A stretch of 64,000 nt of DNA from a virus (IMGVR_UViG_3300021963_000030); one strand, 5' to 3'. Shown: positions 15,159 to 62,599, counted from the first letter of the stretch. Made by a program: numbers and translations. The notes: generated by a model not told the origin, from the sequence alone.

Positions 15159-15190
15159 TAGTAACAATTAACAAATAACCGACTTAATTT

Positions 15191-17976: not shown

Positions 17977-17994
17977 GTTATACTATCTATAAAT

Positions 17995-22559: not shown

Positions 22560-22933
22560 AGTAGTTTACGTATAATCAAATAGATAAACAAACTGCAAAT
22601 ATAGTTAATTGGAAACAATAACAATGTATAGATCTGATGATAACCAGATCCAAATACTAATAAACCAACTGTCACTAGTGTTGACCAAAAACATAGACAA
22701 ATTGGACACGATATTAACTTGGTAAAGTAACTTGGATAATTACTATACAAAAAGTTAGGATAGTTTGACATTACGTCAACTTCTGCTTTGTATTTAGTAA
22801 ATTCATCTATTCTGAATAACCATTTTGTGTTGGTTAATGTAGCTATGGTTGTAACGATATCACTTTCAAACCAAACTACCAACATAAATGATATCCAACA
22901 AATTAGAGGAATGTCAAGATCAGCGAGGTTCAT
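22556..22933 (-). CDS. membrane protein with CxxC (DUF1360-like)
   Basis: TM helices. KLISCPICLCFW. Confidence 0.55.
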   Translation of the reverse strand: MNLADLDIPLICWISFMLVVWFESDIVTTIATLTNTKWLFRIDEFTKYKAEVDVMSNYPNFLYSNYPSYFTKLISCPICLCFWSTLVTVGLLVFGSGYHQIYTLLLFPINYICSLFIYLIIRKLL

Positions 22934-24926: not shown

Positions 24927-24950
24927 ATGGTATACATAGATTTTTATATT

Positions 24951-25817: not shown

Positions 25818-26766
25818 TGCACATGTCTCTCCATTGTTTTAACCAAACTTGTTCGGTGTAATATTTTTGATAATTTGATTTGGTAGTTTCTATACATTGA
25901 TTGTAAAACTCTTTATCATCTCTCAAACGAATTGCTAACTTATTAGCACTTTCAATATCACCAACATCCACACTCAAGTCTGGATGTAAAATTTGTTGGG
26001 TATCTAATCCTTTATATCCAATACATGGTATACCCCAATATGAACAATTCAATGCGAACGTTCCCGCAACTCTGGGTCTCATCAAATGAACACCATAACT
26101 AAACTTAGACAATGCGATCATCCAATCAGTCCACTCTAAGAATGGTAAATGGTTTAGGTTAGGAGTGTGTTCTTCATTTTCAATTCTACGTCCCATGCTT
26201 GGAACCCAGATTGGTTTATTAAAGTTTCTAGCCACAAAGTAACTATCTATGCCGCTATACCAACTACAGAAGTTGCCGCCTATAATAACCTCACCATTGC
26301 GTGCCGGTGTTATATTCTTGGCTTTTAATCCATCATCTACAATCAACGTTTGAATGGTATACGTCTTCTTTTTGTATATACCACTGTAGTATGGAACGTC
26401 GGTCTTACTATGCGCAAACAATACGTCCATAGACCCAACAAAGTTTAGATATCGAATTTGGTCAATATATTTGTAGTCTTGATAATACCAATGACTACCT
26501 TCTTGCATGTGTCCAATCTTCTTACACAACTTTCTAGCATTTGTCAATAACAACTCTAAATTGAGGTTGGTAATATCTTTTGGTAAAATTATTACACCCA
26601 AATCATATTGTTGTGATATCTGATTTCTATCTGCCATTGCAAGACCATACACGTTGATAATGTCGGAGTCAGATGCTGCTGGCCACGCTGATACCACACT
26701 TAAATTGTTGACGGTTCTTGAAACTTTACCGTTAATATTGATTGGACTTATAAAGCAAGTGTTCAT
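25795..26766 (-). CDS. GT-B fold glycosyltransferase-like protein
   Basis: AGTFALNCSYWGIPCIG, DLSVDVGD, LRDDKEFY. Confidence 0.6.
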   Translation of the reverse strand: MNTCFISPININGKVSRTVNNLSVVSAWPAASDSDIINVYGLAMADRNQISQQYDLGVIILPKDITNLNLELLLTNARKLCKKIGHMQEGSHWYYQDYKYIDQIRYLNFVGSMDVLFAHSKTDVPYYSGIYKKKTYTIQTLIVDDGLKAKNITPARNGEVIIGGNFCSWYSGIDSYFVARNFNKPIWVPSMGRRIENEEHTPNLNHLPFLEWTDWMIALSKFSYGVHLMRPRVAGTFALNCSYWGIPCIGYKGLDTQQILHPDLSVDVGDIESANKLAIRLRDDKEFYNQCIETTKSNYQKYYTEQVWLKQWRDMCNDILENT

Positions 26767-26767
26767 T

Positions 26768-27409
26768 TTACGGAGTTCCCATATTTTCTTCAGCAGTAAA
26801 GTTCTTCATGTATCGTTCATTACTCTCACGTTGTTTCTCAATCGTTTTTTCATGAACAATAGCATAATCTTTTTGAGGAGGAATAATTGTATAACTGTCA
26901 TGACCCTCAACACGTTCATGCAATCGCTTTTTGTAACGAATATTTGGCTTCCTCTTATACAATCGTGACTGATAGTCTGGAAAATTTACCATACCTTCGA
27001 CCATTTTCCAACCCCATTTATCTATATCCGATTGTTCTACACCCGTGAAATAATTGCATCTTGGCAACCAAATGACATCATTAACATCATTTTGTTTGAT
27101 AAGCAATTCTATATGTTCTAACAATAGATCTGTTGGATATTCGTCTCCGTCTAATTGAAATATCCACTCACCACTACACGAATCAATACCAAAGTTCTTT
27201 TGTGCTCCATAATTGTTGTTAAGTCTATGAAGTCGCAGTTGTATGTGATTACTGTATTTCTCAAATATCTCCAGTGTTTTTGGATTGGTAGAATGATCAT
27301 CAATCACGACAATTTCTTGATTTGATTTGAGTGAAGAAACTAGCTTGGACAATAACTTATCCAAGCTGTCAGTTTCGTTGTGGGTAGTAATTAGATATGA
27401 TAAGAACAT
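26768..27409 (-). CDS. glycosyltransferase family 2
   Basis: YLITTHNE, VIDDHS, QKNFG, WIFQLDGDE, PDYQSR, LHE. Confidence 0.85.
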   Translation of the reverse strand: MFLSYLITTHNETDSLDKLLSKLVSSLKSNQEIVVIDDHSTNPKTLEIFEKYSNHIQLRLHRLNNNYGAQKNFGIDSCSGEWIFQLDGDEYPTDLLLEHIELLIKQNDVNDVIWLPRCNYFTGVEQSDIDKWGWKMVEGMVNFPDYQSRLYKRKPNIRYKKRLHERVEGHDSYTIIPPQKDYAIVHEKTIEKQRESNERYMKNFTAEENMGTP

Positions 27410-27410
27410 A

Positions 27411-28730
27411 TTAGATCTTTAATGTAGGCAATCCGCCGGATGCATCTGGAGAAATTGCGTTGAACTTTGGAAGAACAAACTTATTTTCAACTGCGAATTT
27501 GGGAACATATTGATCCAAGATAGCCCACAGTTTCTTGTCCATTGCATCCATACTAAACTTCTCGGCATTTTCTTGACGAAGTAGTTCTGCATTTTCAAAT
27601 ATCTTCTTTGGCTTATTGTGGAACATTTCCTTGATTTTGTTCTCAGCCAATCCATAAGACACCTTGAACCACTTACTTTCTTTGATAATCCATTGATTGA
27701 CTGACTTTTTATCAACGTCAACCAACTGACCTTGAAGAAGAGTAGCATACTTTGGATTCATAAAGTCGAGATGGCCACTCCAGTCTGGTGCGAGAACTGG
27801 TTTACCACTCAATGTTTGTAACAATAGTGGGTGACCATAACCTTCACCGTGAGTAAATGAAATGTGAACCTTTACCTTTGGATGGTTGAACAAAGCATTC
27901 ATTTCAACGTCGGTCAATTCACCGTGTAACAAATAGATGTTTGGAATTTGTCCCTTGAATGTCGAGGTAATTTTATTGATATTGTTTATAATCTCAAACC
28001 TATCCATGGTCGAGAAACCAACACCCGAAGTCTTAAGAATGAGACATGGCTTGTTTGGAGTATTGTTATTGAAAGCTTCACAAAAGGTTTTTACAAGGTT
28101 TGCAATGTCCTTTCGATCTGCAAACAATCCACTGTGGGTCCACTGACCAACAAACAAATAGGCAAACTCTTCTGGAATAACAGATAATGCTTCATCAACT
28201 GATGCAACACGTTCGTCTGTCTTTTTGTAGATTCTTGTATCAGCACCCCAGAAACATACTTCGATTGGTTTCTTTACTGCAATATCTTCACGTTTGCCAT
28301 CAGGCGTTTGTTTCAACATCTTGGTATTTACCAACACATCCTTAGAATGTTTGGACAACGCAATCGTCAAATCGGTTCGGTTTACACCCTCAATAAATTC
28401 ACCAGACGCAACCGTAGTTTCGATACCAGCCGTCATACCAATATTATACTTACCAACACGTTGAAACTCGTTGGGAATACTCAATTGGATAAACAAATCT
28501 GGTTGCTTTTGAAGAGGTTGCAACAGAAACCTGGTTGTAAGGTTTTGATCTTCTGGATCGGTCAATTCTTCAATATATCGTTTTGGTTGACAATTACCCC
28601 ATCTAGTAGGTGCAATCTTTACATCGTATTTGTCATAACGAACAATACTCTTAGCAACAGCTGTTGCCCAGTCACCATACCCGCTTCGATTAAAGACGGG
28701 TCCAGAAATTAAACATAGTGGTTTACTCAT
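27411..28730 (-). CDS. glycosyltransferase family 4-like (GT-B)
   Basis: RSGYGD, AGIET, YLFVGQW, RKDI, HGEGYGHPLL. Start is MSKPLC. Confidence 0.8.
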   Translation of the reverse strand: MSKPLCLISGPVFNRSGYGDWATAVAKSIVRYDKYDVKIAPTRWGNCQPKRYIEELTDPEDQNLTTRFLLQPLQKQPDLFIQLSIPNEFQRVGKYNIGMTAGIETTVASGEFIEGVNRTDLTIALSKHSKDVLVNTKMLKQTPDGKREDIAVKKPIEVCFWGADTRIYKKTDERVASVDEALSVIPEEFAYLFVGQWTHSGLFADRKDIANLVKTFCEAFNNNTPNKPCLILKTSGVGFSTMDRFEIINNINKITSTFKGQIPNIYLLHGELTDVEMNALFNHPKVKVHISFTHGEGYGHPLLLQTLSGKPVLAPDWSGHLDFMNPKYATLLQGQLVDVDKKSVNQWIIKESKWFKVSYGLAENKIKEMFHNKPKKIFENAELLRQENAEKFSMDAMDKKLWAILDQYVPKFAVENKFVLPKFNAISPDASGGLPTLKI

Positions 28731-28731
28731 A

Positions 28732-29307
28732 TTATCTATTAAATTGTTGTTGTTCACGTTCACCAATCACTTGACTATACTTCTTTGCAGGAGTTGGAAC
28801 CCCGCCTAGTTTATTGTATAATTCTTCCATCTTGGACATTTGTTTGGATGCTTGGTCTACAGTTTCACGTTTGTTGTCACTACTACCAAATCCACCATCA
28901 CCACGTTGCGTCGCGGTCAAATCATCAACTTCAGCGAATCCACCTTGAACTGTTCCATGTGCTTCAAAAATGATTTGAGCAATAGCTGTTTCTTTGCCAT
29001 CCTTGATGATTGGTAGTTGAACCGGTTTGTCTCCAAGATTGATTAGAGCTACCAAGATTTCGCCACGATAATCACTATCAATAACACCGGCAAGAACGTC
29101 GAGGCCATGTTTTACAGCAAGTCCACTACGAGGTGCAACTCGACCATAAAATCCCTCTGGAATAGCCAAAGCAATATCTGTTTTGAATGCCTTACGTTCA
29201 CCAGGCTTTAATTCATACGATTCTGTAGTGTATAGATCATAACCAGCTGCACCAACACTACCCTTACTAGGAATTACAGCTTTATCAGATAGTTTCTTAA
29301 TATTCAT
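28732..29307 (-). CDS. dut: trimeric dUTPase with C-terminal extension
   Basis: AAGYDL, GRVAPRSGLA, GVIDSDYRGEI, IAQII, RGDGGFGSS. Confidence 0.96.
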   Translation of the reverse strand: MNIKKLSDKAVIPSKGSVGAAGYDLYTTESYELKPGERKAFKTDIALAIPEGFYGRVAPRSGLAVKHGLDVLAGVIDSDYRGEILVALINLGDKPVQLPIIKDGKETAIAQIIFEAHGTVQGGFAEVDDLTATQRGDGGFGSSDNKRETVDQASKQMSKMEELYNKLGGVPTPAKKYSQVIGEREQQQFNR

Positions 29308-30272
29308 TGAATTTCCTTTTTGATAGATTCAACATCAATCTTGTGCATGTCAAATCCAAGTTTACCTTGAGGCAAATTGTCCATATTGAACTCTTCACTA
29401 TAACTGAATATACCAAACTTCTTGGGTGGTGTAAAGTTATCAATAGTAAAATCCATTGCTTTAATAAACTCACGACACATATGTTCAGAATTGATACCAC
29501 CTTCGTTTAGTGCCCAACGTCTACCTTCAGCACCATATGATTCACGCTTTTCTGGACCAACCAAATACCAATACATGATAGCCTCTGAGATATCTTTATA
29601 ATCGGTAAAATCATCCATGATATAAGGTGTTGGAGGACTACCTTGTAGTGTTTGAATCTTGGTCCATATTGGCTTAGCCCAAACTCCATGTTTCTTGTAT
29701 TTACCAGTAACATTGGTGCCAAATTCCAAATTAAACTCATATGGATTACCATCGTTGTCTACCAATCCAAGTTGATCTTGTAGACCACCAGTGACCGTGG
29801 CGATTACTGGGGTTCCACACATAATAGCTTCAGCAATACTCAAACCAAATCCTTCATTGGAACTTACGTTTGCTACTACGTCACAAATATTGTAAAATGC
29901 AACCATGTCTTCTGGAGTTCTTCGACTTTCGTCAATGACCACAGTGTAGTTAGGACAAATAGCTTCAATAACTGCTAACAAGTTGGTTCCTTGATCACAC
30001 ACCTTGTCGGTATGCATTAACAAAGCACACTCACTCGCTTGTTCTGGAGTCAAATGATCACAAAAGTTTTTGAATGCCAATATTAAATTAGCGGGATGCT
30101 TTCTATGAGTATTTCTACTGTTGAATCCTACAACAAACTTATAGTTGCGATCACCAAAGAACTCTTTCTTTAGTTTGGTCACCAAGTTGTTATTCTTTGG
30201 AAGTGTAGTAAATACCTTCGAATTGATTCCGTGGGGAACGTAGTGTAGTAGATGTTTTCCTTTTACTGGCAT
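29304..30272 (-). CDS. GT4 glycosyltransferase, C-terminal part of a split gene
   Basis: YVPHGIN, SRNTHRK, ANVSSNEGFGLSIAEAIMCGTPVIATVTGGLQDQ. Confidence 0.8.
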   Translation of the reverse strand: MPVKGKHLLHYVPHGINSKVFTTLPKNNNLVTKLKKEFFGDRNYKFVVGFNSRNTHRKHPANLILAFKNFCDHLTPEQASECALLMHTDKVCDQGTNLLAVIEAICPNYTVVIDESRRTPEDMVAFYNICDVVANVSSNEGFGLSIAEAIMCGTPVIATVTGGLQDQLGLVDNDGNPYEFNLEFGTNVTGKYKKHGVWAKPIWTKIQTLQGSPPTPYIMDDFTDYKDISEAIMYWYLVGPEKRESYGAEGRRWALNEGGINSEHMCREFIKAMDFTIDNFTPPKKFGIFSYSEEFNMDNLPQGKLGFDMHKIDVESIKKEIQ

Positions 30273-37907: not shown

Positions 37908-40559
37908 ATGAGTTACAGCAAAAAAGTTGTTTATTTTGGATCAGATGGTGCGAGTGGGTATGCTAATGCGGCTAAGGGATACATTTATGACTTAATACAA
38001 AGTGGTCATGAAGTATTTTTTGGAACATTATCTGGTGCTCCAGTAAAAGACGATACTGAGTTTTATAACTATTTTCATAAGAATGTTAAGAAAATTCCAG
38101 TCTTTTCCAAGAAAGAAAAACTTGAAGGTGCGGATGTAGTAATTCATTTTACTCCCGATATTTGGAATAAAGTAATTAATTCTCACAAAGACTGGATTGG
38201 CAACAAGAAAGTTATTGGTAGAACCGTATGGGATTTTGATCCTGTTCCTGACAAGTGGGTAAAAGACATTAACGACAGTATTGTTAATGTTGTTAGCGTT
38301 CCATCCGAATGGTGTAAAAATGTGTTTATTAAGTCTGGTGTAAAAAAGGATGTAATTGTAGAACCACACACTGTTCCAAACATTAATTATACTAAATATG
38401 GTTTGGTAGATCTATTAAATAATGCTAGAGTATTTAGTCCAGTCCCCATCAATTATCAACGGTATACAAAACGAGTAAAATTCTTAAATATATCTTCATT
38501 GGTAGCACGAAAGAATACTGGATTTTTGATCGAAGCATATTTGGATTCGTTTACATTTGATGATGAAACTCTACTAATATGCAAGTTCACTGATCACATC
38601 AATAATATCTCTCATATTGAAAAACATATACAAGAGATAATTCTAAAGAAGATCAAGAATAAAGAAAAAGATTATGCCTATGCTCCAATTGTAGTAATAA
38701 GTGAACGATTGAGTTTCGATAAAATTCAAAGTCTACATGATGATACAGACATTTATGTTAATGTATCTAAGGGTGAGGGCTTCAATATACCATGTTATAC
38801 TGCTTCAAGAAAAAATAAAGATATTGTTACTCTATTACACGGAGGTATGACAGATTATCTGACAAACTATCCGAAGTTATTTGAAGTTGACTATAACACT
38901 GTTAATATCAGTAGTGTAGATAAAAGTGTAGATTTATCTATGATGATGTGGATCAATATGAATACTAAGAGTGTTGATCCTTCATATGAAGATTTGTGTA
39001 ATAGTCTCAAATCCGCCTATTATTCCAACATCAAAAAATGTGTATACTTTGATTCGGTTGAACTTTATCAACCACATACAACTTTGACTGAAGAGTCATC
39101 GCTGTTTCCAATTTATTTTAAAAACGGATGGCACAATGAATTGTTGACGGCAGGTATTTGGTCTGAAAAACAATCTGAAATGGTGATCGGTCCAGATGTT
39201 CATAAGATTGAGTTTTTATTAGAAAGTGTTCAAGATAACGTAATAACTTTGACTATAAACGATGTGGATCATGTTTATCAAGTAAAACGTGGTCAGTATT
39301 CATTAAAGGTAATTTCTAAAGAAGAAAAACATATCGAATTCGACTGTCAAACCACAGTGAATGGGTCGTGTGTAGGTAGAAATGAGGATAAAGATTATGG
39401 TGTCAAAATTGTTGACATTTACGTTAATGGTATCAAAAACTCAACGAGTAAGCTTGTATTAAAAGATGCAAATTTCAACGAACGTGTGCTTGTAGATAGT
39501 GGATTTATTATAGAAAAATCGAATGTCTTGAACAAGGGTGAATACGGAGATATTATCATTAAGTTCAAAGAGTTGACTGATAATAACAAATACCCAAAAA
39601 AGATCAATCTTGGTAAACAACTTTCATTTTATTCACATAGATCTGGATGGAATTATGTGTTACACAACATGGCCGCACTCAATAGTAACAGCGGTGTATA
39701 TTGCGATGGTTTTATAGAAAATAATTTTAGTTGGAGAAAAACAGAGTGCATTCTTCAAAAGACAATTCCATATAACAAGAGTTGGGTCGGATTTATTCAC
39801 AACCCACCAAACATGCCACCATGGTTTAGTGATAATAATGCGTTTTGTAACATCATATTGCAAGATCCATATTTTCTAGATAGTCTTAGAAAATGTAAAG
39901 GGTTATATACACTGTCAGAGTATCACGCCAAAGTAATACGACAGTATGTTCCATTTGTTCCAGTCGAGTCATTGTATCATCCAACTGAAATTCCAGAGTT
40001 ACAATTTGATTTCGAAAAATTTGTCAAGAATCCAGAAAAGAAACTTATCACTATTGGATGGTGGCTTCGTAAGTTAAATGCATTATATACCGTTAACCCC
40101 GACGGATATCAGAAGGTAAGATTGCTGCCAAACAACAAGTGTAAAGATACAATTTTTAGATTGGAAAAAATAGAATCATTGGTCAACAATCAACAAATAA
40201 CTGACGAACAAAGAAATTCTGTAAGAATACTTGACTTCTTACCTAATGATGAATATGATAAGATACTGACTGAAAATTTAGTATACCTTGATTTATATGA
40301 TAGTAGTGCCAATAACGGTATCATTGAATGTATGGCTAGAGCAACCCCAATATTTATAAATCGACTTCCCGCAATTGTTGAGTATTTGGGAGAAGGATAC
40401 CCACTATATATTGACAGTCAATATGACTTGGAAGCTAAAATAAAAGATTTAGATTTGATAAAGAAAGCACATCTTTATCTAAAAACAATAAGATACAAAG
40501 TTGAAATTGGCCACTTTTTAGAGAGTATGGTCAATTCAAAGATATATAAGAGTTTATGA
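37908..40559 (+). CDS. multidomain glycosyltransferase: GT4 domain, beta accessory domain and a C-terminal GT-B-like domain
   Basis: SGYANAAKGY, RKN, SKGEGFNIP. GWH...WS domain. HRSGW...GFIHNP...IGWWLRK...DSSANNGIIEC. Confidence 0.7.
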   Translation: MSYSKKVVYFGSDGASGYANAAKGYIYDLIQSGHEVFFGTLSGAPVKDDTEFYNYFHKNVKKIPVFSKKEKLEGADVVIHFTPDIWNKVINSHKDWIGNKKVIGRTVWDFDPVPDKWVKDINDSIVNVVSVPSEWCKNVFIKSGVKKDVIVEPHTVPNINYTKYGLVDLLNNARVFSPVPINYQRYTKRVKFLNISSLVARKNTGFLIEAYLDSFTFDDETLLICKFTDHINNISHIEKHIQEIILKKIKNKEKDYAYAPIVVISERLSFDKIQSLHDDTDIYVNVSKGEGFNIPCYTASRKNKDIVTLLHGGMTDYLTNYPKLFEVDYNTVNISSVDKSVDLSMMMWINMNTKSVDPSYEDLCNSLKSAYYSNIKKCVYFDSVELYQPHTTLTEESSLFPIYFKNGWHNELLTAGIWSEKQSEMVIGPDVHKIEFLLESVQDNVITLTINDVDHVYQVKRGQYSLKVISKEEKHIEFDCQTTVNGSCVGRNEDKDYGVKIVDIYVNGIKNSTSKLVLKDANFNERVLVDSGFIIEKSNVLNKGEYGDIIIKFKELTDNNKYPKKINLGKQLSFYSHRSGWNYVLHNMAALNSNSGVYCDGFIENNFSWRKTECILQKTIPYNKSWVGFIHNPPNMPPWFSDNNAFCNIILQDPYFLDSLRKCKGLYTLSEYHAKVIRQYVPFVPVESLYHPTEIPELQFDFEKFVKNPEKKLITIGWWLRKLNALYTVNPDGYQKVRLLPNNKCKDTIFRLEKIESLVNNQQITDEQRNSVRILDFLPNDEYDKILTENLVYLDLYDSSANNGIIECMARATPIFINRLPAIVEYLGEGYPLYIDSQYDLEAKIKDLDLIKKAHLYLKTIRYKVEIGHFLESMVNSKIYKSL

Positions 40560-40978
40560 ATATCAAAGAAATATATTACAATAACAAGATATACACAGTG
40601 CCAACAACATCAGTAAAGCACATTGATAATAGCGACGTAACACAAATAGAAGAAGATTTGATAGTTTATTATTCGGATCAACATCAAGCTTGGAGAGAAG
40701 CTTCGTTAGACCTACAAAAAATGTATACGAATAAGGTAGTTGTAAATGTTTTGTCTGGTGATGAGACTTTAAAATTAAAAGTGAATGCCGACGACGTAAT
40801 TGAAATTTTAGATAAAAAAGTAGTTAAGGTGAAGTTGGAATCAATTGTAGTGTGTGACGATGATGTTAAAAATATTTGGAAAGTAGTAGACCAAAGTAAT
40901 GACCTATGTAAGCTTTATAAAATATTTGATCAAAACAAACATCGATTAAGTGCTGAAAACAAAATATTCAATGGATAA
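40556..40978 (+). CDS. hypothetical beta-rich protein
   Basis: 140 aa, operon-coupled. Weak Hint-like pattern. Confidence 0.55.
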   Translation: MNIKEIYYNNKIYTVPTTSVKHIDNSDVTQIEEDLIVYYSDQHQAWREASLDLQKMYTNKVVVNVLSGDETLKLKVNADDVIEILDKKVVKVKLESIVVCDDDVKNIWKVVDQSNDLCKLYKIFDQNKHRLSAENKIFNG

Positions 40979-40983: not shown

Positions 40984-42078
40984 ATGAAAGATTTGTCTAA
41001 AAAGTTTTGTTTCAAACCATGGGACCATCTAGAAATTGGACCTGGACAAACACACAGATTACCAACAGAATACACTGAAGATGTTGTTTATCCATGTTGT
41101 TCAAATTGGATAAACAGATATCATTTTGGCAAAATTGACAAAGATATCAAATTTAATGATGTGTGGAATAGTGATAAAGCAAAGAAATTTAGACAATCAA
41201 TTTTAGATGGTAGTTACAAATATTGCAATAAAACACTATGTCCTTGGATACAGAATAACAATTTGCCAGATGTGGACGATGTAATTTCTGGAAAACATGG
41301 AGAAGAAAAAAAGAATATATATCTGACCAAAGAATTACATTCTGATTATCCAAACTATATCAATCTATGTTATGACAAAAGTTGCAATTTAAAATGTCCA
41401 AGTTGCAGAAAAGATTTTGAATTTTTGACCGAAAAAAGCGACAGTGAATTATATTTGTATAAACTAGCGCATCAGAAAAATTTGATTGAATATTTGTATA
41501 CATGTAAGACAAAAACATGTGTCAATATAACTGGATCTGGAGACCCATTTGCTAGTAGGTTGTTTTGGGAACTTATTACTTCATTTGATGGTATCAAAAA
41601 TCCATTGTTACAATTTCAGTTTCAAACAAACGGCGTTCTTTTTACAGAAGAAAACTGGAACAAAATGAAGAACCTACACAATAACTGTATAACAGCTGTA
41701 ATTAGTTTGGATGCCGGAACTGAAGAAACATACAATTACACCAGACGAGGTGGAGACTGGAATAAACTCATGAACAATTTGCAATTTGTCAAACGTCTTT
41801 TTGATGAAAAGAAATTGTGGTATGTTAGATTAGATTTTGTTTGTCAACAGAAAAACTACAAGGAAATCCCGCTTTTTATTGATATAGCAAAAAAATACAA
41901 TTTTCACTGTTATTTGTCAAGAATTGATAACTGGGGAACATACTCCGAAGAAGAGTTTAAAGTCCACAATATATTTGATAAACATCATCCAGAACATAGT
42001 GAATTTCTGAAAATAGTTAATCAAACATATGATTATGAATTCATCGATTTTGGTAACCTAAGTGAGTTCAGAAAATAA
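40984..42078 (+). CDS. radical SAM protein with N-terminal SPASM/twitch domain
   Basis: FCFKPW...PCC...WNS...CNKTLCP, CNLKCPSC, TGSGDPF, QTNG, ISLDAGT. Confidence 0.88.
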   Translation: MKDLSKKFCFKPWDHLEIGPGQTHRLPTEYTEDVVYPCCSNWINRYHFGKIDKDIKFNDVWNSDKAKKFRQSILDGSYKYCNKTLCPWIQNNNLPDVDDVISGKHGEEKKNIYLTKELHSDYPNYINLCYDKSCNLKCPSCRKDFEFLTEKSDSELYLYKLAHQKNLIEYLYTCKTKTCVNITGSGDPFASRLFWELITSFDGIKNPLLQFQFQTNGVLFTEENWNKMKNLHNNCITAVISLDAGTEETYNYTRRGGDWNKLMNNLQFVKRLFDEKKLWYVRLDFVCQQKNYKEIPLFIDIAKKYNFHCYLSRIDNWGTYSEEEFKVHNIFDKHHPEHSEFLKIVNQTYDYEFIDFGNLSEFRK

Positions 42079-42082
42079 AGTT

Positions 42083-43210
42083 ATGTCAGAAGTAATTCAT
42101 TTTAATTCAAATCCTCTAAAATGGCATGGTGACTTAACTTTGTGTCACGATAAAACAATCAACAAGTCGTATAGATCGTTGGAAGATATAGGATGGGAAT
42201 TGGAAAATTATGCACCTCACTATTGGGGGCCGATTAATCCAGAATATTATCAGGCCTCGACGTTGTTTGTCAGAAAACATAATGGCAAAATGGAATATGG
42301 TCATTATGGAGACAGTCGTGCTACAGAAACATCTCTGTTGTTTAATGATGTTGATGCCGAATTCAATTTTAAAGATTTTGATTGGATACAAATTTTCTTA
42401 GCAGATGCTGGACCAACAATCCGCATGTTAGAAAATATCAAAATTCCAGTATTTACTACTGCGTATTATAACTTTGAATTTAAGAATTATGAACCCGATC
42501 TGGGCGTTCCAAATCCAGAACGATATATGCCGGATGTTAAAAAATTGACACTACCATATCATTACAATCGTGGTTTATTGGTCAATAATACTTTGTCAGT
42601 TTTACCAACGTGTGCTTATAACAATTTCTTTGGTGTTAATTTTAAGAATCTAATCAAGTTTAAAAAAGAATACGCTAAACATCACCGAGGCCTTCAACAA
42701 AAAGTTGGATGGCGTGGATCTATGAACTGTCATCAAAGATACTTACTTGTCAAGTTATCCCATGACAATTTTGATATGATTGATGCAAAACAGTGGGTAG
42801 GGATACCAAATTATTGTCCTCCGGCAAATAAAGACTTTTCAAATCAATTCATATACAATGAATATATGACACTAGAAGATCAGATTACACAATTTGATTA
42901 TTTGATTGAAGTTGGGGCAGGAGGATTTAGTGGAAGAGTGCCACACCTTATACAGTCAAATAGAATAGTGTTATCTACTGACCATCCAGTTTGGTCTTAT
43001 GCTGAACATCAACTAGTGTCTGATATACATTACGTTAGAATAAAAAAGGACTTAAGTAATTTAGTTGAAAAACTTCAAGATATGAAAAATAACCCTCAGA
43101 AGTATGAGGTTATTAGAGATAATATGTATAATTTGTCAGAAACACACTTTACATTGGAAAATATCCGTAAAATTGTATACGAAACAATGTGCATCAGACT
43201 AAACTTATAA
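42083..43210 (+). CDS. glycosyltransferase family 90 (CAP10-like)
   Basis: VGWRGS, QFDYLIEVGAGGFSGR, HYVRIKKDLSNL. Confidence 0.72.
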   Translation: MSEVIHFNSNPLKWHGDLTLCHDKTINKSYRSLEDIGWELENYAPHYWGPINPEYYQASTLFVRKHNGKMEYGHYGDSRATETSLLFNDVDAEFNFKDFDWIQIFLADAGPTIRMLENIKIPVFTTAYYNFEFKNYEPDLGVPNPERYMPDVKKLTLPYHYNRGLLVNNTLSVLPTCAYNNFFGVNFKNLIKFKKEYAKHHRGLQQKVGWRGSMNCHQRYLLVKLSHDNFDMIDAKQWVGIPNYCPPANKDFSNQFIYNEYMTLEDQITQFDYLIEVGAGGFSGRVPHLIQSNRIVLSTDHPVWSYAEHQLVSDIHYVRIKKDLSNLVEKLQDMKNNPQKYEVIRDNMYNLSETHFTLENIRKIVYETMCIRLNL

Positions 43211-43214
43211 ATTT

Positions 43215-44222
43215 ATGTATAGAATCACAAATATAATTGATAAAGATATTCATTTATATACGTTTGAATTCAAAAAACGTTCCAGCATCATTTTTCGGGA
43301 ATTTCCAAAGTTTTTAAATATTTATGTCGAAAACACCGACTTCGCATATTTGTTGAAACGATCTTCTTGGTTAAAAAATGAAAACTTAACTCATGTGAAA
43401 GAAGACTTCACATTTGACAAAGAGGTAGAACATTTATCTCACGCATCATTATTTTTGTTTGATGATTATTTTGGTAATTATCTACATTACTTTCTAGAAA
43501 CATTTCCTAAATTGGAATATTTCATGCGAATAAAAGAAAGTATCCCAGATTTAAAGTTGATTGTTCCTGACTTTATGTGGGATGTATCATTTATCAAAGA
43601 ATCTATTCTTTTGTATTTTGATAATAACATGAATGATGTGGTAGTATTAAGTGGTTCTAAACATTATACATGTGATAGATTGTTAATACCCAGTAATGTA
43701 TATCTATGGCCTGATAAGGGATATTTTTCAAGTATCATACATGACAGTTTTAAGACATTATCAAACAAGGTTACTATTGACGATAAAAAAGAAGGTGTGT
43801 ATATTTCGAGACAAGATATTGTCAAACTTGGTTGGAGACACAATAGACATTTACAAAATGAACTAGAATTGATTGATAAGATCAAAACCAAATTCGATTA
43901 CGATATAATTGAGCTATATGATTTGAACATGTATGATAAAATCAAAGTATTCAAGTCATACAATAATATAATACAGACAAATGGTGCTGCTATGATAAAT
44001 TTATTGGTATGTCAACCAAATACAAACTATCACATCATTTCACATCCATTGTATGGTCCATGGGCAAACCCAATATTGAGAGACTCGGCAAATAGATTGG
44101 GCGTCAATTTTTATGATTACGATTATGCTAAATTACTTGAAGATCATGAACCTATTGTAGGTGATACCAATAATAGACCATGGCGATTGGAAAACATAGA
44201 CCACATGTTATCAAGACTATAA
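43215..44222 (+). CDS. glycosyltransferase family 61 (DUF563)
   Basis: NYLHYFLETFPKL, YISRQD...R..QNE, NGAAMINL. Confidence 0.75.
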   Translation: MYRITNIIDKDIHLYTFEFKKRSSIIFREFPKFLNIYVENTDFAYLLKRSSWLKNENLTHVKEDFTFDKEVEHLSHASLFLFDDYFGNYLHYFLETFPKLEYFMRIKESIPDLKLIVPDFMWDVSFIKESILLYFDNNMNDVVVLSGSKHYTCDRLLIPSNVYLWPDKGYFSSIIHDSFKTLSNKVTIDDKKEGVYISRQDIVKLGWRHNRHLQNELELIDKIKTKFDYDIIELYDLNMYDKIKVFKSYNNIIQTNGAAMINLLVCQPNTNYHIISHPLYGPWANPILRDSANRLGVNFYDYDYAKLLEDHEPIVGDTNNRPWRLENIDHMLSRL

Positions 44223-44225
44223 TTT

Positions 44226-45200
44226 ATGGAAAAGATAAAACTCAAAGGCGGATCATTAAGCGGCGTATATCTCATCAAGGATGACAAAAAAACATATGTG
44301 AGAAAAGAAGTTTCGGTGTTACACAATAGAGAATATGGATTTCAAAGATGGTATTCGCAACTTAAAAAGATTCAGAGATATAACTCATTGTTTCCAAATT
44401 TGTTTCCAGAGTTAATATCATACGGATTAGAAGAAGACATTGCATATTTTGATATGGAGTATTTAGAAAACGCCATATCAGCACATAAGTTTGTATGTTC
44501 AACCACCGATCCCAAAAAGATTGAAATATTTCTAGAAAATCTATTATCGTCGATGAACAGACTTCATTCTGTTAAATTGAAATCTAACACGAACTCTCTC
44601 GATCTATACATAAAAGAAGAAGTATTACAGAAGTTAAATGATGCTATAATTGATGATATATTTTTACAGTTTGTCAAACATAAAACAGTTAATGTTAATG
44701 GTTATGACATAAACGCTTTTTATTATGAAGTGGATAACTATACATCATTATTTAAAAAAGTATACAATAATCCAGTTGAGTGTTTTACTCACGGAAATAT
44801 AACATTGGAAAATTTATTATACGATGAAGAGAATGATAAATTATACTTCATAGATCCATACGAAGAAAACATAATCGACTCTTCTTTAACAGAGTATTCT
44901 CAGATATTTCAATCAACTAATTCAAAATATGAGATATATAATAACCTAGATATAGATGTGGTCAACAACAATTTGATTATAAACAACGTTGATAATTTTG
45001 GAGTAGACTATTTGAATAAATTGTTCGATGACCATCTACGCAAAACAATCAGTAATGATCAATACATAAGTGTAAAATTGTTTGAAGTATCTCAGTTTGT
45101 AAGAATGCTCCCATTTAAAAAAGAAATTGACAAAAATAAGATGTTATTTTTCTACATATTAGCATCGAAGTTATTTAATGATGTTAAAATCCTATTATGA
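44226..45200 (+). CDS. APH/choline-kinase-like phosphotransferase
   Basis: LKGGSLSGVY, VRK, FDMEYL, HGNITLENLL, FIDP. Confidence 0.75.
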   Translation: MEKIKLKGGSLSGVYLIKDDKKTYVRKEVSVLHNREYGFQRWYSQLKKIQRYNSLFPNLFPELISYGLEEDIAYFDMEYLENAISAHKFVCSTTDPKKIEIFLENLLSSMNRLHSVKLKSNTNSLDLYIKEEVLQKLNDAIIDDIFLQFVKHKTVNVNGYDINAFYYEVDNYTSLFKKVYNNPVECFTHGNITLENLLYDEENDKLYFIDPYEENIIDSSLTEYSQIFQSTNSKYEIYNNLDIDVVNNNLIINNVDNFGVDYLNKLFDDHLRKTISNDQYISVKLFEVSQFVRMLPFKKEIDKNKMLFFYILASKLFNDVKILL

Positions 45201-46315
45201 CAGAATATGAGATAAATACTACATTGTCTGTAAATTATAAAATTAAAAACTCTCCGGGGATTTTTAATATGAATAATTTGGATTTATTGTATTGTAATTC
45301 GGATGTATTTTCAAACCGAAGATTCCTTGTCATCGATGAAAAAATATATAAATTGTTTGCAAGCGAGATAAAACAATATTTTGAACATCACAATATATAC
45401 ACAAAAATTGTGACGCTGGACTCGGAAGAGATTTCAAAAACAGATTCAAAGTTGATTGAGTTGTTGGAAGAAATTGAGAACTTTAACTTAAATAGAAGAA
45501 GTGAACCTATTATTTGTATAGGTGGCGGAATAATACTTGATATAGCTGGGTTAGCATCATCGTTATATAGAAGAGGTATACCATACATAAGAGTTCCTAC
45601 TACATTATTGGGAATTGTGGATGTATCTGTCGCAGCTAAAACCGCAGTCAACTTTAAGAATAGACGAAATAGACTTGGATCGTATTATCCACCAATACTA
45701 AGTTTAATAGACAAATCATTTATATACACACAGACGTTGAGTGACATAAGTTCTGGTATGGGTGAAATTCTTAAGATGGCGGTAATCAAGGACCATGATC
45801 TGTTTTGTATTTTGGAAAAATATGGTTCCGAAATAATGCACAACAAGTTTAATCATCCACAATCCGATCACGTTATTCATCTGTCAATAAAAGGAATGAT
45901 AGAGGAGTTAGAAAATAATTTGTGGGAGAAGAATTTAAAGAGACTTGTAGATTTCGGTCATACATTTAGTCCAATTATTGAAATGCGATCTCTTGGAACA
46001 GATTGTGAATTAAAACATGGTCAAGCTGTGGCATTGGATGTTGTATTCTCTTCGATAATATCATATAATAGAAATATTTTATCGTATGACGAATTGGTAA
46101 GAATTATAAACACATCAAAAAATCTTGACTTGCCAACGGCACATGAATATTTTTGTAACTTTTCATTTTTGAGAGAATCATTAAATGATGCTACTAAACA
46201 TAGAAATGGAAATCAAAACATGCCTATTCCAACAAAAATTGGTGTGGGGAGTTTTGTAAATGATTTAACCGATGATGAAATAATAAAAGCAATCGAAGTT
46301 TTTAAAACTATATGA
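45197..46315 (+). CDS. sedoheptulose 7-phosphate cyclase, 2-epi-5-epi-valiolone synthase (EEVS) type
   Basis: RRSEPIICIGGGIILD, SLYRRGIPYIRVPTTL, GMGEILK, MIEELENNLWE..L.RLVDFGHTFSP, HGQAV. Confidence 0.85.
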   Translation: MTEYEINTTLSVNYKIKNSPGIFNMNNLDLLYCNSDVFSNRRFLVIDEKIYKLFASEIKQYFEHHNIYTKIVTLDSEEISKTDSKLIELLEEIENFNLNRRSEPIICIGGGIILDIAGLASSLYRRGIPYIRVPTTLLGIVDVSVAAKTAVNFKNRRNRLGSYYPPILSLIDKSFIYTQTLSDISSGMGEILKMAVIKDHDLFCILEKYGSEIMHNKFNHPQSDHVIHLSIKGMIEELENNLWEKNLKRLVDFGHTFSPIIEMRSLGTDCELKHGQAVALDVVFSSIISYNRNILSYDELVRIINTSKNLDLPTAHEYFCNFSFLRESLNDATKHRNGNQNMPIPTKIGVGSFVNDLTDDEIIKAIEVFKTI

Positions 46316-46989
46316 AAAAAACAGTAATAATAACAGGAGTTAGCAGTGGTGTTGGAAAAAAGGCGGTCGAAAAGTTCTTGTCAAAGAAATGGAATGTGAT
46401 AGGGCTTTCTAGAAACAAAGTTGATTTTTCCAGTAAAAATTATTTGCATATAGAGACAGATTTGAAGAGCGTCGAGTCGATAAAAAAAACATTTGACGTT
46501 ATATCCGATAAATTTGATTCGATTGATTTATTGATTAACAATGCTGCTATATTTAAAATGAAACCCTTTACTGAGTTTTCAGAACAAGAGATCAATGACA
46601 TTATAGATACAAATATCAAAGGGGTCATTTTTTGCACACTGAATACATTGAAAATTATGAAACAGGGTAGAATAGTGAATATAAGCTCTGTATCTGGAAC
46701 GCATGGAATAGAAAATCAATCAGTATACAGTTCGACCAAATATGCTCTAAATGGATTTTCTGAGTCTTTAAATCAAGAACTTATAAAGAAAAATATATTA
46801 ATCACTACAATTTGTCCTGGCGGAATAAATACCCCTTTGTGGAATGAGAAAAATAAATACCCAGGTGGTGACACAAACAAACTTTTGAAAGATGAAGATG
46901 TTGTGAACATGATAGAGTATGTATCTGAATTGCCTAAAAATGTAGTTTTGAAAAATGTAGTTTTGTTTCCAACATGCGAATGGCATTAA
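46312..46989 (+). CDS. short-chain dehydrogenase/reductase
   Basis: TGVSSGVG, LINNAA, NISS, YSSTK, ICPGGINT. Confidence 0.92.
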   Translation: MKKTVIITGVSSGVGKKAVEKFLSKKWNVIGLSRNKVDFSSKNYLHIETDLKSVESIKKTFDVISDKFDSIDLLINNAAIFKMKPFTEFSEQEINDIIDTNIKGVIFCTLNTLKIMKQGRIVNISSVSGTHGIENQSVYSSTKYALNGFSESLNQELIKKNILITTICPGGINTPLWNEKNKYPGGDTNKLLKDEDVVNMIEYVSELPKNVVLKNVVLFPTCEWH

Positions 46990-46993
46990 TATT

Positions 46994-47698
46994 ATGAATC
47001 TTATACTAACGATGGCCGGTAAATACTCTCGGTTTGTCAACGAGGGATTTAAAATTCCAAAGTATCTATTACCTTGGGCAAATCACACGATATTGTCCGA
47101 AATATTGTTTAATCTGACAAATCAAAATGTGTTCAAGAATGTATTTTTGGTTGCCAACAAAAACGATAAAAATTTCATGTATCAAATTTTGTATACAATG
47201 AAATACTATAATATCCCGCAAGAAAACTTAGTCTTTATAGGTGATACAAAAAGTCAATGTGAAACCGCCTTACACGGCATTGATAGATTTAAAAATAGAT
47301 TGGTGAACGGACCTATATGTTTTCATAATATAGACACTATATTGTATGAACGAGATTTACACCACATTTCAAATAGTTTGAATAAGTATGATGGATATAT
47401 CGATATATTTACTTCAAATAATCATGAATATAGTTACATATTAACTGATGACATATATGTAAAGGACATACAAGAAAAAATACTGATATCTTCTGTAGCC
47501 AGTTCTGGATTTTATGGATTTTCTAACACAGATACGTTTTTTAAATATTACGAGGATGACTACTTCAGCAAGACATATAGAAATATGATAAATGATGATA
47601 AAAAAGTAGTTTTTGGTAATTTACACAATGAGAATAATACTCTAGTGTTAGGAACTCCAAAAGAGTATTTTTACTTATCTAGTAAACACATCGTTTAG
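46994..47698 (+). CDS. sugar-phosphate nucleotidyltransferase-like protein
   Basis: LTMAGKYSRF...PKYLL, SQCETA, NIDT, LGTPKEY. Confidence 0.75.
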   Translation: MNLILTMAGKYSRFVNEGFKIPKYLLPWANHTILSEILFNLTNQNVFKNVFLVANKNDKNFMYQILYTMKYYNIPQENLVFIGDTKSQCETALHGIDRFKNRLVNGPICFHNIDTILYERDLHHISNSLNKYDGYIDIFTSNNHEYSYILTDDIYVKDIQEKILISSVASSGFYGFSNTDTFFKYYEDDYFSKTYRNMINDDKKVVFGNLHNENNTLVLGTPKEYFYLSSKHIV

Positions 47699-48513
47699 TT
47701 GGAAAAGTAGTTTTTCCAAAACTTGTATACATCCACAATGTTACTTTCGTTAACATTGTTGTTTTCAATAATATATTTCCATGATCTAAAACATTCGACA
47801 TCGACTGGAGTTCCAAGACATGCGTATTTTGTGGCATCATATTGGGTTACTTTTAGTCCATCTTGAATCATTAGGTTGTAAGGAACAGTAACATAGTATT
47901 CACCATTGACGCAAATCTTTTCATTCATTAGACGATTGAAATAGTGTTTCATCAATTTACCAGTCTTAAAGTAATAGATACCATTTGATGCTGGTTCATT
48001 TGGTTTTACTAATTCCATGGGTTTCTTTTCATGCACATACGATACAAAACCCTTTTCATCCACCGTGAGAAATGCAAATGACTTGTTATACAATTTATGT
48101 GGCACAAAACCAGTGTGAGTCACAACAACACCATCTGAATTTGATTCTCGACAGTGTTTAAGAAAATCTGTAAAGTCCCAATTTTGTGTGAGATCACAAT
48201 AGCTTACAATTACTTCTTCGTCATCGGGGATGTTGTCAAAAGCATTTGAAATCGAATATACAGGACCCAGTGTATTTTTGTCGATAGCTACAATCTTTGA
48301 CACCTTGGATTCTAATATGGCCCTTTCAATAGCGTTAGCTGACAAATCATCTTTTCTGACAATGAATATAAAGTCTTTGTCTTCTACGGTGGGAAACATG
48401 TCCAACACATAATCCAATATCTTTTTACCCTCGATCTTTATCAAAGCCTTAATTGGATATCCCTTTGATGTAAAACGTTCACTATTTCCCGAAAGTGTTA
48501 TAACAATCTTCAT
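47695..48513 (-). CDS. sugar-phosphate nucleotidyltransferase-like protein
   Basis: ITLSGNSERF...IKALI, SYCD, HEKKP, ASNGIYYF, NGEYYV, LGTPVD. Confidence 0.8.
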   Translation of the reverse strand: MKIVITLSGNSERFTSKGYPIKALIKIEGKKILDYVLDMFPTVEDKDFIFIVRKDDLSANAIERAILESKVSKIVAIDKNTLGPVYSISNAFDNIPDDEEVIVSYCDLTQNWDFTDFLKHCRESNSDGVVVTHTGFVPHKLYNKSFAFLTVDEKGFVSYVHEKKPMELVKPNEPASNGIYYFKTGKLMKHYFNRLMNEKICVNGEYYVTVPYNLMIQDGLKVTQYDATKYACLGTPVDVECFRSWKYIIENNNVNESNIVDVYKFWKNYFSN

Positions 48514-48952
48514 AAAATTTAATGTTGTCACTTATTATGCCATCAAACTGTAAAATTTCATCGACAGTATAGTTTGACATTTCTGGCATCATTAATATGC
48601 CTTTTCTATAAGTAGTAACTGTGTGCGGATTTATTAGAATTTTTCCTTTACTAGATAGTGTAAATTTATCATTGGTGTGACTGAATATGTCCAATACTGG
48701 TAATGAACTCAATTTGAACAATGAAGCATCATCTTTACAGTGGATCAGTAATCTTGTATAATGTTTTTTCAAAAACTGGTCATTAATTTTCCACACGGGT
48801 TCATCGTGACCTAAATATAATACATCATCTTTACACCAAATATCAATTTCGACATCATATCCCTCTGATATCACGTTTTCGATAACGGATGGAACGTTTT
48901 CGTTGATCTTATGACGACCCTGTAAGTTTCCTCTATGACTAATGAATTTCAT
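48482..48952 (-). CDS. small GDPD/PLC-like phosphodiesterase
   Basis: ISHRGN, EN, GYDVEIDIW, LGHD, IHCK, GIISD. Confidence 0.7.
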   Translation of the reverse strand: MKFISHRGNLQGRHKINENVPSVIENVISEGYDVEIDIWCKDDVLYLGHDEPVWKINDQFLKKHYTRLLIHCKDDASLFKLSSLPVLDIFSHTNDKFTLSSKGKILINPHTVTTYRKGILMMPEMSNYTVDEILQFDGIISDNIKFYEDCYNTFGK

Positions 48953-49019: not shown

Positions 49020-49047
49020 TTGACATGTCGTCTAGTTATGGTATGAT
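49020..49047 (+). promoter_or_regulatory. sigma70-type promoter of the right-hand GT operon
   Basis: TTGACA-N16-(TGG)TATGAT. Confidence 0.7.
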
Positions 49048-49062
49048 TGAATCTAAACTAAT

Positions 49063-49497
49063 ATGAAAGTTATTACAATACAACAACCGTTTTATTTAAA
49101 GTATGTTTCGGCTCTCAAGAAGTTGACAAAAAAGTTATCTAGAATCAAGACCGAACCAAAAATTCAAAGAGAGTCTGATCTGTGGTATGGTCTTGAACAA
49201 GCAAATGACAAACCATTTAGGTGGTCTCATCCACTAACAAAGGTTAATATTCAAAACGTAGACAAGGTTGTATTTGTTTTTTCTGATCCAATTGGTCGAG
49301 AAATGACTTTCAAATCAAAAGAGGTAGACCACACTATCAAGTTGGCACCAGGGGAAGAATACAAGGTAATTGTATCTACGTATGATGCAAATGAAATCTC
49401 CATCAGAATAGATCCATTTAATCCAGATAACGACACACGTTCACTTGGTGCTCAATATTATTCTATCACTTCTGAAGATACATTGGTATTGAACTAA
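49063..49497 (+). CDS. GT-associated beta-domain protein (paralog of 50925)
   Basis: WYGLE...FRWS...NDTRSLG. Confidence 0.6.
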   Translation: MKVITIQQPFYLKYVSALKKLTKKLSRIKTEPKIQRESDLWYGLEQANDKPFRWSHPLTKVNIQNVDKVVFVFSDPIGREMTFKSKEVDHTIKLAPGEEYKVIVSTYDANEISIRIDPFNPDNDTRSLGAQYYSITSEDTLVLN

Positions 49498-62020: not shown

Positions 62021-62599
62021 ATGAGAACTTTGGTAGTAACAAGATATGATGAAAATTTGAGTTGGATTGACAACATCAAAGACGATGTGGTCATTTATAA
62101 CAAAGGTTTTCCCTTACTACCATATGAGTTCAAAGAGTTACCAAACGTAGGTCGTGAGGCGGACAGTATGTTGTATCACATCGTCAACAACTATCATAAC
62201 CTAAGTGATGAACTTGTTTTTCTACAAGGCGATCCATTTGACCACTGTTGGGATCTTTTGAAACTCTTAGAAGAAAATAGAAATGTCGAAGACGTTGTGT
62301 GGTTGGGAAGCAATTGGGGTCCAGTTACAAAAAACTATGACGGTGGACCTGGACATGGTTGTTTTCTACCAATGATAAAGATATCAAAACTATTATTTGA
62401 GAATTGTGACTTTGACAAAAGCACAACGTTCACGTTTTCTGCTGGAGCGCAATATATTGTTCCAAGACACAAGATTACATCCAAGAGTTTAGAGTGGTGG
62501 ATACATGCCTACAAAGTGTTTACAGATAATCTACCTACAACTCCTTGGGTATATGAACGATTGTGGCCGCTGATTTGGAGTTATTCTACAAACCACTGA
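62021..62599 (+). CDS. DUF3431 family protein
   Basis: VVTRYDENLSW, IYNKG, LPNVGREA, FLQGDPFDH, AGAQYIV, WVYERLW. Confidence 0.75.
   Translation: MRTLVVTRYDENLSWIDNIKDDVVIYNKGFPLLPYEFKELPNVGREADSMLYHIVNNYHNLSDELVFLQGDPFDHCWDLLKLLEENRNVEDVVWLGSNWGPVTKNYDGGPGHGCFLPMIKISKLLFENCDFDKSTTFTFSAGAQYIVPRHKITSKSLEWWIHAYKVFTDNLPTTPWVYERLWPLIWSYSTNH

Follow-up and report, generated by a model that had tools for sequence, protein, structure and literature searches.

The DNA analysed here (the window, 64,000 nucleotides in full) comes from the virus IMGVR_UViG_3300021963_000030, and its positions 40,984 to 48,952 hold a dense cluster of genes for a radical S-adenosylmethionine (rSAM) enzyme, two glycosyltransferases (GTs) of families GT90 and GT61, a kinase-fold protein of the aminoglycoside phosphotransferase (APH)/choline kinase type, a predicted sedoheptulose-7-phosphate (S7P) cyclase of the EEVS type (synthase of 2-epi-5-epi-valiolone), a short-chain dehydrogenase/reductase (SDR) and a nucleotidyltransferase (NT1), on which a second nucleotidyltransferase (NT2) and a small protein resembling glycerophosphodiester phosphodiesterases (GDPD) converge from the other strand (Table 1). 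A preliminary description of this DNA took the cluster to be a single pathway for the synthesis, activation and transfer of a C7-cyclitol, or carbasugar. Domain scans of the cluster open reading frames (ORFs) with Pfam and NCBIfam, together with a check of the junctions, found all the genes that it lists, at the coordinates that it gives and as tightly packed: neighbours on the plus strand are either 3-5 nt apart or share 4-17 nt, and the stop codons of NT1 and the convergent NT2 overlap. The cluster is physically contiguous but evolutionarily composite, being made up of a four-gene cassette (44226-47698: kinase-fold protein, cyclase, SDR and NT1) and the backbone of a larger glycan island. 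In an independent freshwater metagenome a 6.1-kb contig spans 39228-45370 with 9 differences and a 2.9-kb contig spans 45346-48261. As both cassette junctions are spanned by independent metagenome contigs, the arrangement is not an assembly chimera.

Table 1. Genes of the cluster and of the start of the glycan island; the four cassette genes are given first. NDP, nucleoside diphosphate.
Feature	Coordinates	Strand	Evidence
Kinase-fold protein, APH/choline-kinase-like, proposed cyclitol kinase	44226..45200	+	catalytic loop HGNPTLEN (atypical)
Predicted EEVS-type S7P cyclase, sugar-phosphate cyclase superfamily	45197..46315	+	ValA 4P53 best solved match
Classical SDR, proposed ketoreductase for C1 ketone of cyclase product	46312..46989	+	adh_short 159 bits
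NT1, sugar-1-phosphate-type nucleotidyltransferase, proposed NDP-cyclitol maker	46994..47698	+	family profile matches 4EVW, E 6e-32
883-aa GT-like protein and 140-aa ORF	37908..40978	+	phrog_2170 glycosyltransferase E 2e-13; same pair in sibling contigs
rSAM enzyme, N-terminal SPASM/twitch-type Cys clusters	40984..42078	+	PF04055, PF13186; CNLKCPSC motif intact
GT90-family glycosyltransferase	42062..43210	+	PF05686 32 bits
GT61-family glycosyltransferase, directly upstream of cassette	43215..44222	+	PF04577 64 bits
NT2, second nucleotidyltransferase, MobA-like/GlmU N-terminal type	47695..48513	-	PF12804 E 3e-10; weak full-length match to 4EVW
156-aa mini GDPD-like protein	48482..48952	-	ATG at 48952 gives MKFISHRGN; translationally coupled to NT2

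The cyclase was compared with a reference set of ValA (EEVS), MysA (desmethyl-4-deoxygadusol synthase, DDGS), 3-dehydroquinate synthases (DHQS) and DOIS (the synthase of 2-deoxy-scyllo-inosose). Among solved structures it matches ValA best (4P53, 285 bits, E 8e-84), ahead of MysA (5TPR, 191 bits), and scores at most 117 bits against true DHQS and 87 bits against DOIS. EEVS and DDGS can be told apart at three positions, occupied by Leu267, Asp281 and His360 in ValA and by Glu254, Ala268 and Thr347 in MysA (2023 review PMC10666671, citing Osborn et al. 2017). A residue-level alignment places L238, D252 and H335 of the cyclase opposite the ValA residues, so that all three discriminators are EEVS-type. 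The Leu and the His are found in 161/161 relatives and the Asp in 160/161 (a single Asn), a conservation that is partly a product of the relative search, one pattern of which contained VDFGH. Also invariant are the metal-ligand positions E190, H255 and H274 in the 161 sequences and the NAD+ motif GGG (G109-G111) in the cyclase family, both mapped by counting along the ValA alignment. The only systematic change in the active-site region is a conservative Lys-to-Arg exchange (RN for the usual KN before RLG): every cyclase linked to the cassette (100%) has the Arg, as do 23% of the remaining EEVS-like sequences. We regard the class of the enzyme as established: as judged from the alignments it is an EEVS-type S7P cyclase, as the preliminary description held, and neither a DHQS nor a DDGS. 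Current annotation pipelines call such cyclases 3-dehydroquinate synthase.

A tree of the cyclases places every sequence linked to the cassette in one clade apart from the actinomycete EEVSs, with modest support (0.68), and the actinomycete EEVS loci have neither the kinase-fold gene nor NT1. Inside this clade the cyclase of the window sits in a small subclade (support 0.97) of mostly cellular sequences, so that the window represents a minority lineage with a cassette that groups with cellular copies.

The cassette was delimited by its co-inheritance. A profile search with the cyclase gave 106 viral contigs and more than 564 genomic hits, 80 of each being kept, and the ORFs of these loci were searched with each protein of the window. 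The kinase-fold gene was found in 75/80 viral loci by BLAST and in 77/80 with hidden Markov models (HMMs), NT1 in 69/80 and 73/80, respectively, and an SDR ortholog (37-80% identity) lies directly 3′ of the cyclase in 79/80 viral loci and in 13 genomes; among the 80 genomic loci, 19-20 have the kinase-fold gene and 17-18 have NT1. Wherever a viral locus is without the kinase-fold gene or NT1, the cyclase is no more than 1.5 kb from the contig end, and each of the 80 viral loci that is long enough holds all four genes side by side, as do about 19 bacterial or archaeal genomes. Synteny across phages, which the preliminary description had proposed as a check, thus holds for the four genes but not for the rSAM, GT90 and GT61 genes, present by BLAST in 0/80, 0/80 and 1/80 viral cyclase loci. 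The gene order is NT1, kinase-fold gene, cyclase, SDR in 65 viral loci, and the order seen in the window (kinase-fold gene, cyclase, SDR, NT1) recurs in three other viral contigs and in several cellular groups, namely Woesearchaeota, Polynucleobacter, Desulfobulbaceae, Myxococcales/Kofleriaceae, Balneolaceae and Fibrobacteria. When the four proteins are compared through their pairwise-distance matrices over 82 loci, the correlations are r 0.79-0.94, and the nearest neighbours are the same for each gene. A protein in which the kinase-fold domain is joined to the cyclase, with NT1 just upstream (P0288), comes from a single 4.2 kb contig, is without the last 35 kinase profile positions and possibly contains a frameshift; it was counted as weak support only. 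Co-inheritance of the cassette is established by these data, and the conserved unit appears to be the four genes, horizontally mobile, a combination that fits the route to a nucleotide-activated C7-cyclitol first suggested for the cluster.

Near-identical cassette DNA (at least 91% of sampled words) is present in metagenomes of at least 8 studies dated 2018-2025, with the labels marine, estuary, freshwater, aquatic and sediment. Its neighbours in Polynucleobacter include Wzz, ManC, GT2, GT9 and DegT, and those in a woesearchaeote a Wzx-type flippase, PMT and GT2, which points to surface-glycan loci as the cellular setting of the cassette. In Polynucleobacter sp. 80A-SIGWE the complete cassette is found within a locus of the O-antigen type. 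In 53 loci of the main viral clade a gene for a GT-A-fold, DUF7796-like protein lies directly upstream of NT1, an example of this partner being L063:5568-6284; the model of this partner (predicted local distance difference test, pLDDT, 84) is most akin to the retaining families GT6 and GT8, and known pseudoglycosyltransferases are likewise related to retaining GTs. As a side observation, a 394 kb viral contig (L007/L010) has the cassette near genes for one Acb5-like anti-defence protein and for Thg1, PTH2, IF3, HSP20 and ClpP.

The folds of the three proteins other than the cyclase are also established. The cassette SDR forms its own orthologous group and shares no more than 20-27% identity with SDRs from actinomycete clusters. 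The best match of NT1, 4EVW, is an uncharacterised NDP-sugar pyrophosphorylase; over its full length the NT1 profile further matches GlmU (E 4e-5) and RmlA (E 5e-5 to 3e-4), and its N-terminal part alone weakly matches IspD/TarI (E 5e-4 to 1e-3). The N-terminal loop of the NT1 family (M7-A-G9…R13-F14) is invariant. The kinase-fold protein gave a confident model with a bilobal protein-kinase-like fold that matches small-molecule kinases, including the anomeric methylthioribose kinase, NahK and maltokinase, with anomeric kinases not singled out in the structural ranking. Its ATP- and metal-binding elements, assigned by motif spacing and not by superposition, are invariant in 27 family members: the Gly-rich loop K7-G-G-S10, the β3 Lys K27, the αC Glu E36, the metal-binding Asn N196 and the Asp D210.

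On these predicted functions we consider it reasonably probable that the cassette turns S7P into a nucleotide-activated C7-cyclitol and occupies the donor-synthesis slot of the glycan island. The cyclase would convert S7P into 2-epi-5-epi-valiolone with release of phosphate, the SDR would reduce the C1 ketone to a pseudo-anomeric alcohol, the kinase-fold protein would phosphorylate the cyclitol, most simply at C1 on the new pseudo-anomeric hydroxyl, and NT1 would join the cyclitol phosphate and a nucleoside triphosphate (NTP) into an NDP-cyclitol, presumably an uncommon unit to be built into a glycan in the course of infection. Cyclases of the DHQS family eliminate the phosphate of their substrate by an established mechanism. 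As the cyclase removes the phosphate, a kinase has to act before NT1 can, and for this step the kinase-fold protein is the sole candidate that travels with the cassette. A precedent for nucleotidylation of a cyclitol 1-phosphate exists in AcbU, a 1-kinase, and AcbR, which converts valienol 1-phosphate to GDP-valienol (PMC9200736). The order of the steps, the position phosphorylated, the nucleotide, any dehydration or epimerisation and the transfer to an acceptor are inferred. More tentatively, carbasugars may serve as units of surface or virion glycans, installed by GTs and proof against glycosidases, by way of a cassette exchanged among bacteria, DPANN archaea and the phages of aquatic habitats, with the kinase-fold protein as a new class of Asp-less APH-fold kinase; this wider picture seems to us possible, though on the whole doubtful. 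That the product is passed on to proteins of the virion, to DNA or to a glycan of the host, as the preliminary description had it, is pure inference.

Several points weigh against the pathway as drawn, and the kinase step is its weakest link. The catalytic Asp of the H-x-D-x4-N loop is replaced by Asn in the kinase-fold protein, so that the APH-like kinase of the preliminary description keeps its fold and its ATP/metal-binding residues but not the canonical catalytic Asp. The motif HGN[PLIV]TLEN is found in 95/99 locus homologs and HGN in 85/87 full-length clusters at E ≤1e-30 from a library of 1.84 billion proteins, and more distant relatives keep the Asp (HGD[LIP]TxEN), which makes the exchange a fixed and derived feature of the cassette kinase subfamily. 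Such a protein may be slow, may use another base or may be no kinase; an invariant Glu adjoining the metal-binding Asn might act as the alternative base. On the transfer side, the window has no dedicated transferase that is co-conserved with the cassette, and neither the DUF7796-like GT-A protein nor five further families that partner the cassette in the main viral clade were found among the window ORFs with HMMs and hhalign. Candidate transferases of the window itself are GT61 and a number of GT4-type enzymes encoded further downstream. A saturated NDP-carbasugar would, moreover, be a chemically poor glycosyl donor. The EEVS assignment separates the cyclase from DDGS, DHQS and DOIS and not from 2-epi-valiolone synthase (EVS), and the activities of the cassette enzymes, which are probably those proposed, are predictions from sequence and models. 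Short Logan contigs in two metatranscriptome libraries cover, with 0-3 differences, the GT61/kinase junction, the cyclase/SDR junction and NT1, which is a weak hint of expression and no proof of transcription; stretches that are not covered carry no information.

Two side observations concern the kinase family. Some of the distant relatives that keep the Asp (P0376, P0384, P0373, P0383 and P0404) are fused to LPG_synthase_TM, rSAM/SPASM, HAD phosphatase or NTP-transferase domains and look like a broader unstudied family of glycan-related kinases. A cassette-type kinase-fold protein (P0265) carries a C-terminal GIY-YIG/NUMOD3 homing-endonuclease module, which suggests that in some phage a mobile endonuclease has been inserted next to or into the cassette.

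Since a saturated carbasugar nucleotide would be a poor donor, phosphodiester transfer is a serious rival. The activated cyclitol phosphate could be passed on as a phosphodiester decoration and not as a pseudoglycosyl unit, like the ribitol-, glycerol- or inositol-phosphate that CDP-alcohols supply or the hexose-1-phosphate of Stealth-type enzymes. This would be chemically easier, as the nucleophile attacks phosphorus, no bond of the carbocycle is broken and no NDP has to be displaced from a carbon without a ring oxygen. The weak matches of the NT1 profile to the cytidylyltransferases IspD/TarI are in line with such a transfer, as are a weak match of NT2 to an inositol-1-phosphate cytidylyltransferase model and a LicD/CTP_transf_like gene three genes 3′ of the cassette in one locus (L172). 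However, NT1 aligns over its full length with the RmlA/GlmU type and only in its N-terminal part with IspD/TarI, a CDP-alcohol phosphotransferase, TagF or a clear LicD is not co-conserved with the cassette, and the commonest partner in the main viral clade has a retaining-type GT-A fold and not a phosphotransferase fold. We consider phosphodiester transfer unlikely.

NDP-carbasugars are known inhibitors of glycosyltransferases, and the free cyclitol or NDP-cyclitol could also be a soluble effector in infection, for instance as an osmolyte, as a protectant or as an inhibitor of the host's glycosidases or glycosyltransferases. All of the known C7-cyclitols (validamycin, acarbose, streptol, kirkamide and gadusol) are soluble small molecules (PMC12904256, PMC4426668), and the window has no transferase strictly co-conserved with the cassette. 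A nucleotidyltransferase is nevertheless an invariant member of the cassette, which argues for activation for transfer; the cellular cassettes are embedded in polysaccharide loci that also encode flippases, chain-length regulators and numerous GTs, and the phage cassettes lie inside GT islands, with the GT-A gene directly adjoining in 53 loci. A gadusol-type methyltransferase-oxidoreductase (MT-Ox) was not seen beside the cyclase in the gene tables inspected, although no search was aimed at one. A soluble role thus seems about as improbable as the phosphodiester route.

Less probable still is a different chemistry, in which the Asn-for-Asp protein is a pseudokinase or no kinase and the cyclase product bypasses a cyclitol phosphate: the fixed Asp-to-Asn exchange within an otherwise canonical catalytic loop would fit this, as would the best PDB sequence-profile match of the protein, the JAK2 pseudokinase domain (by way of the shared HGN…N motif), but the ATP- and metal-binding elements listed above are all invariant, the adjoining Glu could be an alternative base, and with a cyclase that strips the only phosphate and an NT1 that needs a phosphorylated substrate, no other kinase travels along. 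Conversion of S7P to a nucleotide-activated C7-cyclitol by way of a cyclitol phosphate is the reading that we carry forward.

The other genes of the cluster (rSAM, GT90, GT61, NT2 and the GDPD-like gene) appear from comparison with related contigs to be island backbone or a separate module, outside the pathway. Sibling contigs without the cassette run from the clamp loader through the ~880-aa GT, the ~140-aa ORF, rSAM and GT90 to NT2, the GDPD-like gene, orf144 and GT472, and the position of the cassette is taken in them by genes for a methyltransferase, for a DUF6492 protein and for a GT61 on the other strand. A relative contig of 164 kb has the GT/ORF/rSAM trio and no cassette. In cassette-less phage contigs, rSAM relatives with 57-63% identity follow the ~880-aa GT and ~140-aa ORF, and GT90 adjoins rSAM in such siblings. 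The rSAM enzyme scores 66 bits with NF033640 of NCBIfam (N-terminal twitch radical SAM), below the cut-off of 170. It was considered as a cassette-linked modifier of the cyclitol and rejected, as it is found in none of the 80 viral loci and is present in the cassette-less siblings.

Orthologs of the GT61 protein with 52-57% identity lie directly 5′ of the cassette in L009 and L172/L173, and others with 47-52% identity lie in islands without the cassette, after rSAM and before a methyltransferase (L170/L171 and another contig); the gene that follows in L170/L171 encodes a 622-aa NTP-transferase. The occurrence of GT61 orthologs with and without the cassette suggests that the cassette fills a swappable slot downstream of GT61. 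The orthologs in cassette-less islands also led us to reject GT61 as a dedicated cyclitol transferase, and it is left as a weak candidate for using the cassette product.

The preliminary description further grouped NT2 and the phosphodiesterase with the cluster; we place them outside the pathway, as both occur in cassette-less sibling islands. The two genes are paired in those siblings and in L010 and L098 and would form a separate module. The start of NT2 is likely at 48513, as inferred from its MKIVITLSGNSERF N-terminus. As for the phosphodiesterase itself, the invariant HRG, E-x-D and HD motifs (H6, R7, E35, D37, H49 and D50) are in its favor, but the match of the family profile to GDPD (7E0V, E 5e-5) covers only the N-terminal ~50 residues (4-54), and the protein has ~150 aa as compared with the ~250-aa TIM barrel, so that the assignment is supported in part only. 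The gene beyond this pair, orf144 (49020-49497, +), is conserved in sibling contigs and has the deepest cover among the contigs of the two metatranscriptome libraries; of the sigma-70-like sites in the region, the best one (TTGACA-16-TATGAT with TG) lies just upstream of it. Promoter and terminator scans did not rise above the shuffled expectation and were uninformative on operon structure.

The window encodes a UvsX-like recombinase, a gp41-like helicase, both subunits of ribonucleotide reductase, a gp43-type family B DNA polymerase and a gp44-like clamp loader, a gene content that indicates an uncultured T4-like phage as its source. The closest named phage by the polymerase, Microcystis phage Mel-JY01, is only 43% identical. 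The glycan island of ~25 kb (37.9-62.6 kb) starts directly 3′ of the clamp-loader gene, its conserved start being the 883-aa GT-like gene with the 140-aa ORF, and holds at least 7 glycosyltransferase-like genes and a methyltransferase; the G+C content of its first 10 kb is 0.30 as compared with 0.36-0.39 in the replication genes. At its far end lies a gene for a DUF3431 protein (62021-62599, +; E 6e-10). A second glycan block (22930-30272, -) contains two GT2 genes, one GT4 gene and a gene resembling UDP-glucose/GDP-mannose dehydrogenases, its middle being occupied by a dUTPase gene (28732-29307), and counting both blocks more than 30 kb of the 64-kb window is glycan-related. Elsewhere in the window we noted a match to the Druantia protein DruA (17917-19176, +; PF14236 E 2e-20, also phrog_19197), that is, a defence-system component on a phage, a UvdE UV-damage endonuclease (19657-20568, +; E 5e-40) and, at 14163-17281 (+), a MoxR-like AAA ATPase, after which comes a 696-aa protein that matches no family.

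That no phage carbasugar system has been described, as the preliminary description stated, agrees with what we found. Literature searches returned incidental papers only, and targeted ones brought up no EEVS or cyclitol pathway in a virus or a surface-polysaccharide locus, a result of incomplete coverage that does not prove absence. In a 2026 review on cyclitols (PMC12904256) the words phage and polysaccharide are both absent. Among 50,697 deposited phage genomes, no match was found to the cyclase by tblastn or to the cluster by megablast.

If the proposed pathway is true, C7-cyclitol chemistry moves from actinomycete secondary metabolism into glycobiology and virology, with a minimal four-enzyme route to NDP-carbasugars that many aquatic phages carry (at least 106 viral contigs) and that is scattered phylogenetically over cellular glycan loci. 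It would add a new type of glycan residue, with consequences for phage-host recognition, and its few enzymes could be used to make carbasugar nucleotides, for which there is a demand as probes and inhibitors of glycosyltransferases. The kinase-fold protein would be a natural test case for a kinase fold with Asn in place of the catalytic Asp, and the annotation of such cyclases as 3-dehydroquinate synthase would need correction.

Among known systems, DDGS (MysA, of mycosporine-like amino acids) and the pair of EEVS and MT-Ox that makes gadusol belong to the same superfamily as the phage cyclase and use the same substrate. The phage cyclase has L/D/H where DDGS has E/A/T, the mycosporine and gadusol partners (ATP-grasp, O-methyltransferase and MT-Ox) do not stand beside it in the gene tables inspected, and the products of those pathways are soluble sunscreens, never nucleotide-activated. 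The salvage systems of NahK, AmgK/MurU and maltokinase resemble the cassette in pairing an APH/choline-kinase-fold kinase with an NTP-transferase-fold enzyme. NahK, AmgK and maltokinase, however, have retained the catalytic Asp, and their substrates are true sugars, whereas that of the cassette kinase would be a carbocycle made de novo by the adjoining cyclase.

The acarbose and validamycin pathways (AcbC/ValA, AcbM/ValC, AcbO, AcbL, AcbN, AcbU, AcbJ, AcbR/ValB and AcbS/VldE) likewise begin with an EEVS-type cyclase on S7P, and the GDP-valienol branch is like the cassette in leading through a reductase, a kinase step and a nucleotidyltransferase to an NDP-cyclitol donor (PMC9200736). The analogy drawn in the preliminary description is nevertheless a loose one: Pfam and NCBIfam scans found no ROK-family cyclitol 7-kinase, 2-epimerase, dehydratase or GT5/GT20 pseudoglycosyltransferase among the cluster ORFs, and no phosphatase or aminotransferase was found in the cassette, unlike in those pathways. 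The cassette has four genes against ~8 enzymes in the actinomycete pathways, its kinase would be an APH-fold protein with Asn where theirs is of the ROK family or the AcbU type, and what it shares with the acarbose pathway is only the class of the cyclase and the general nucleotidyltransferase fold. Acarbose and validamycin are made from secondary-metabolite clusters, whereas the cassette lies in phage and cellular surface-glycan loci, and the pathway proposed for it would be a variant of a familiar kind, in a setting that has no precedent.

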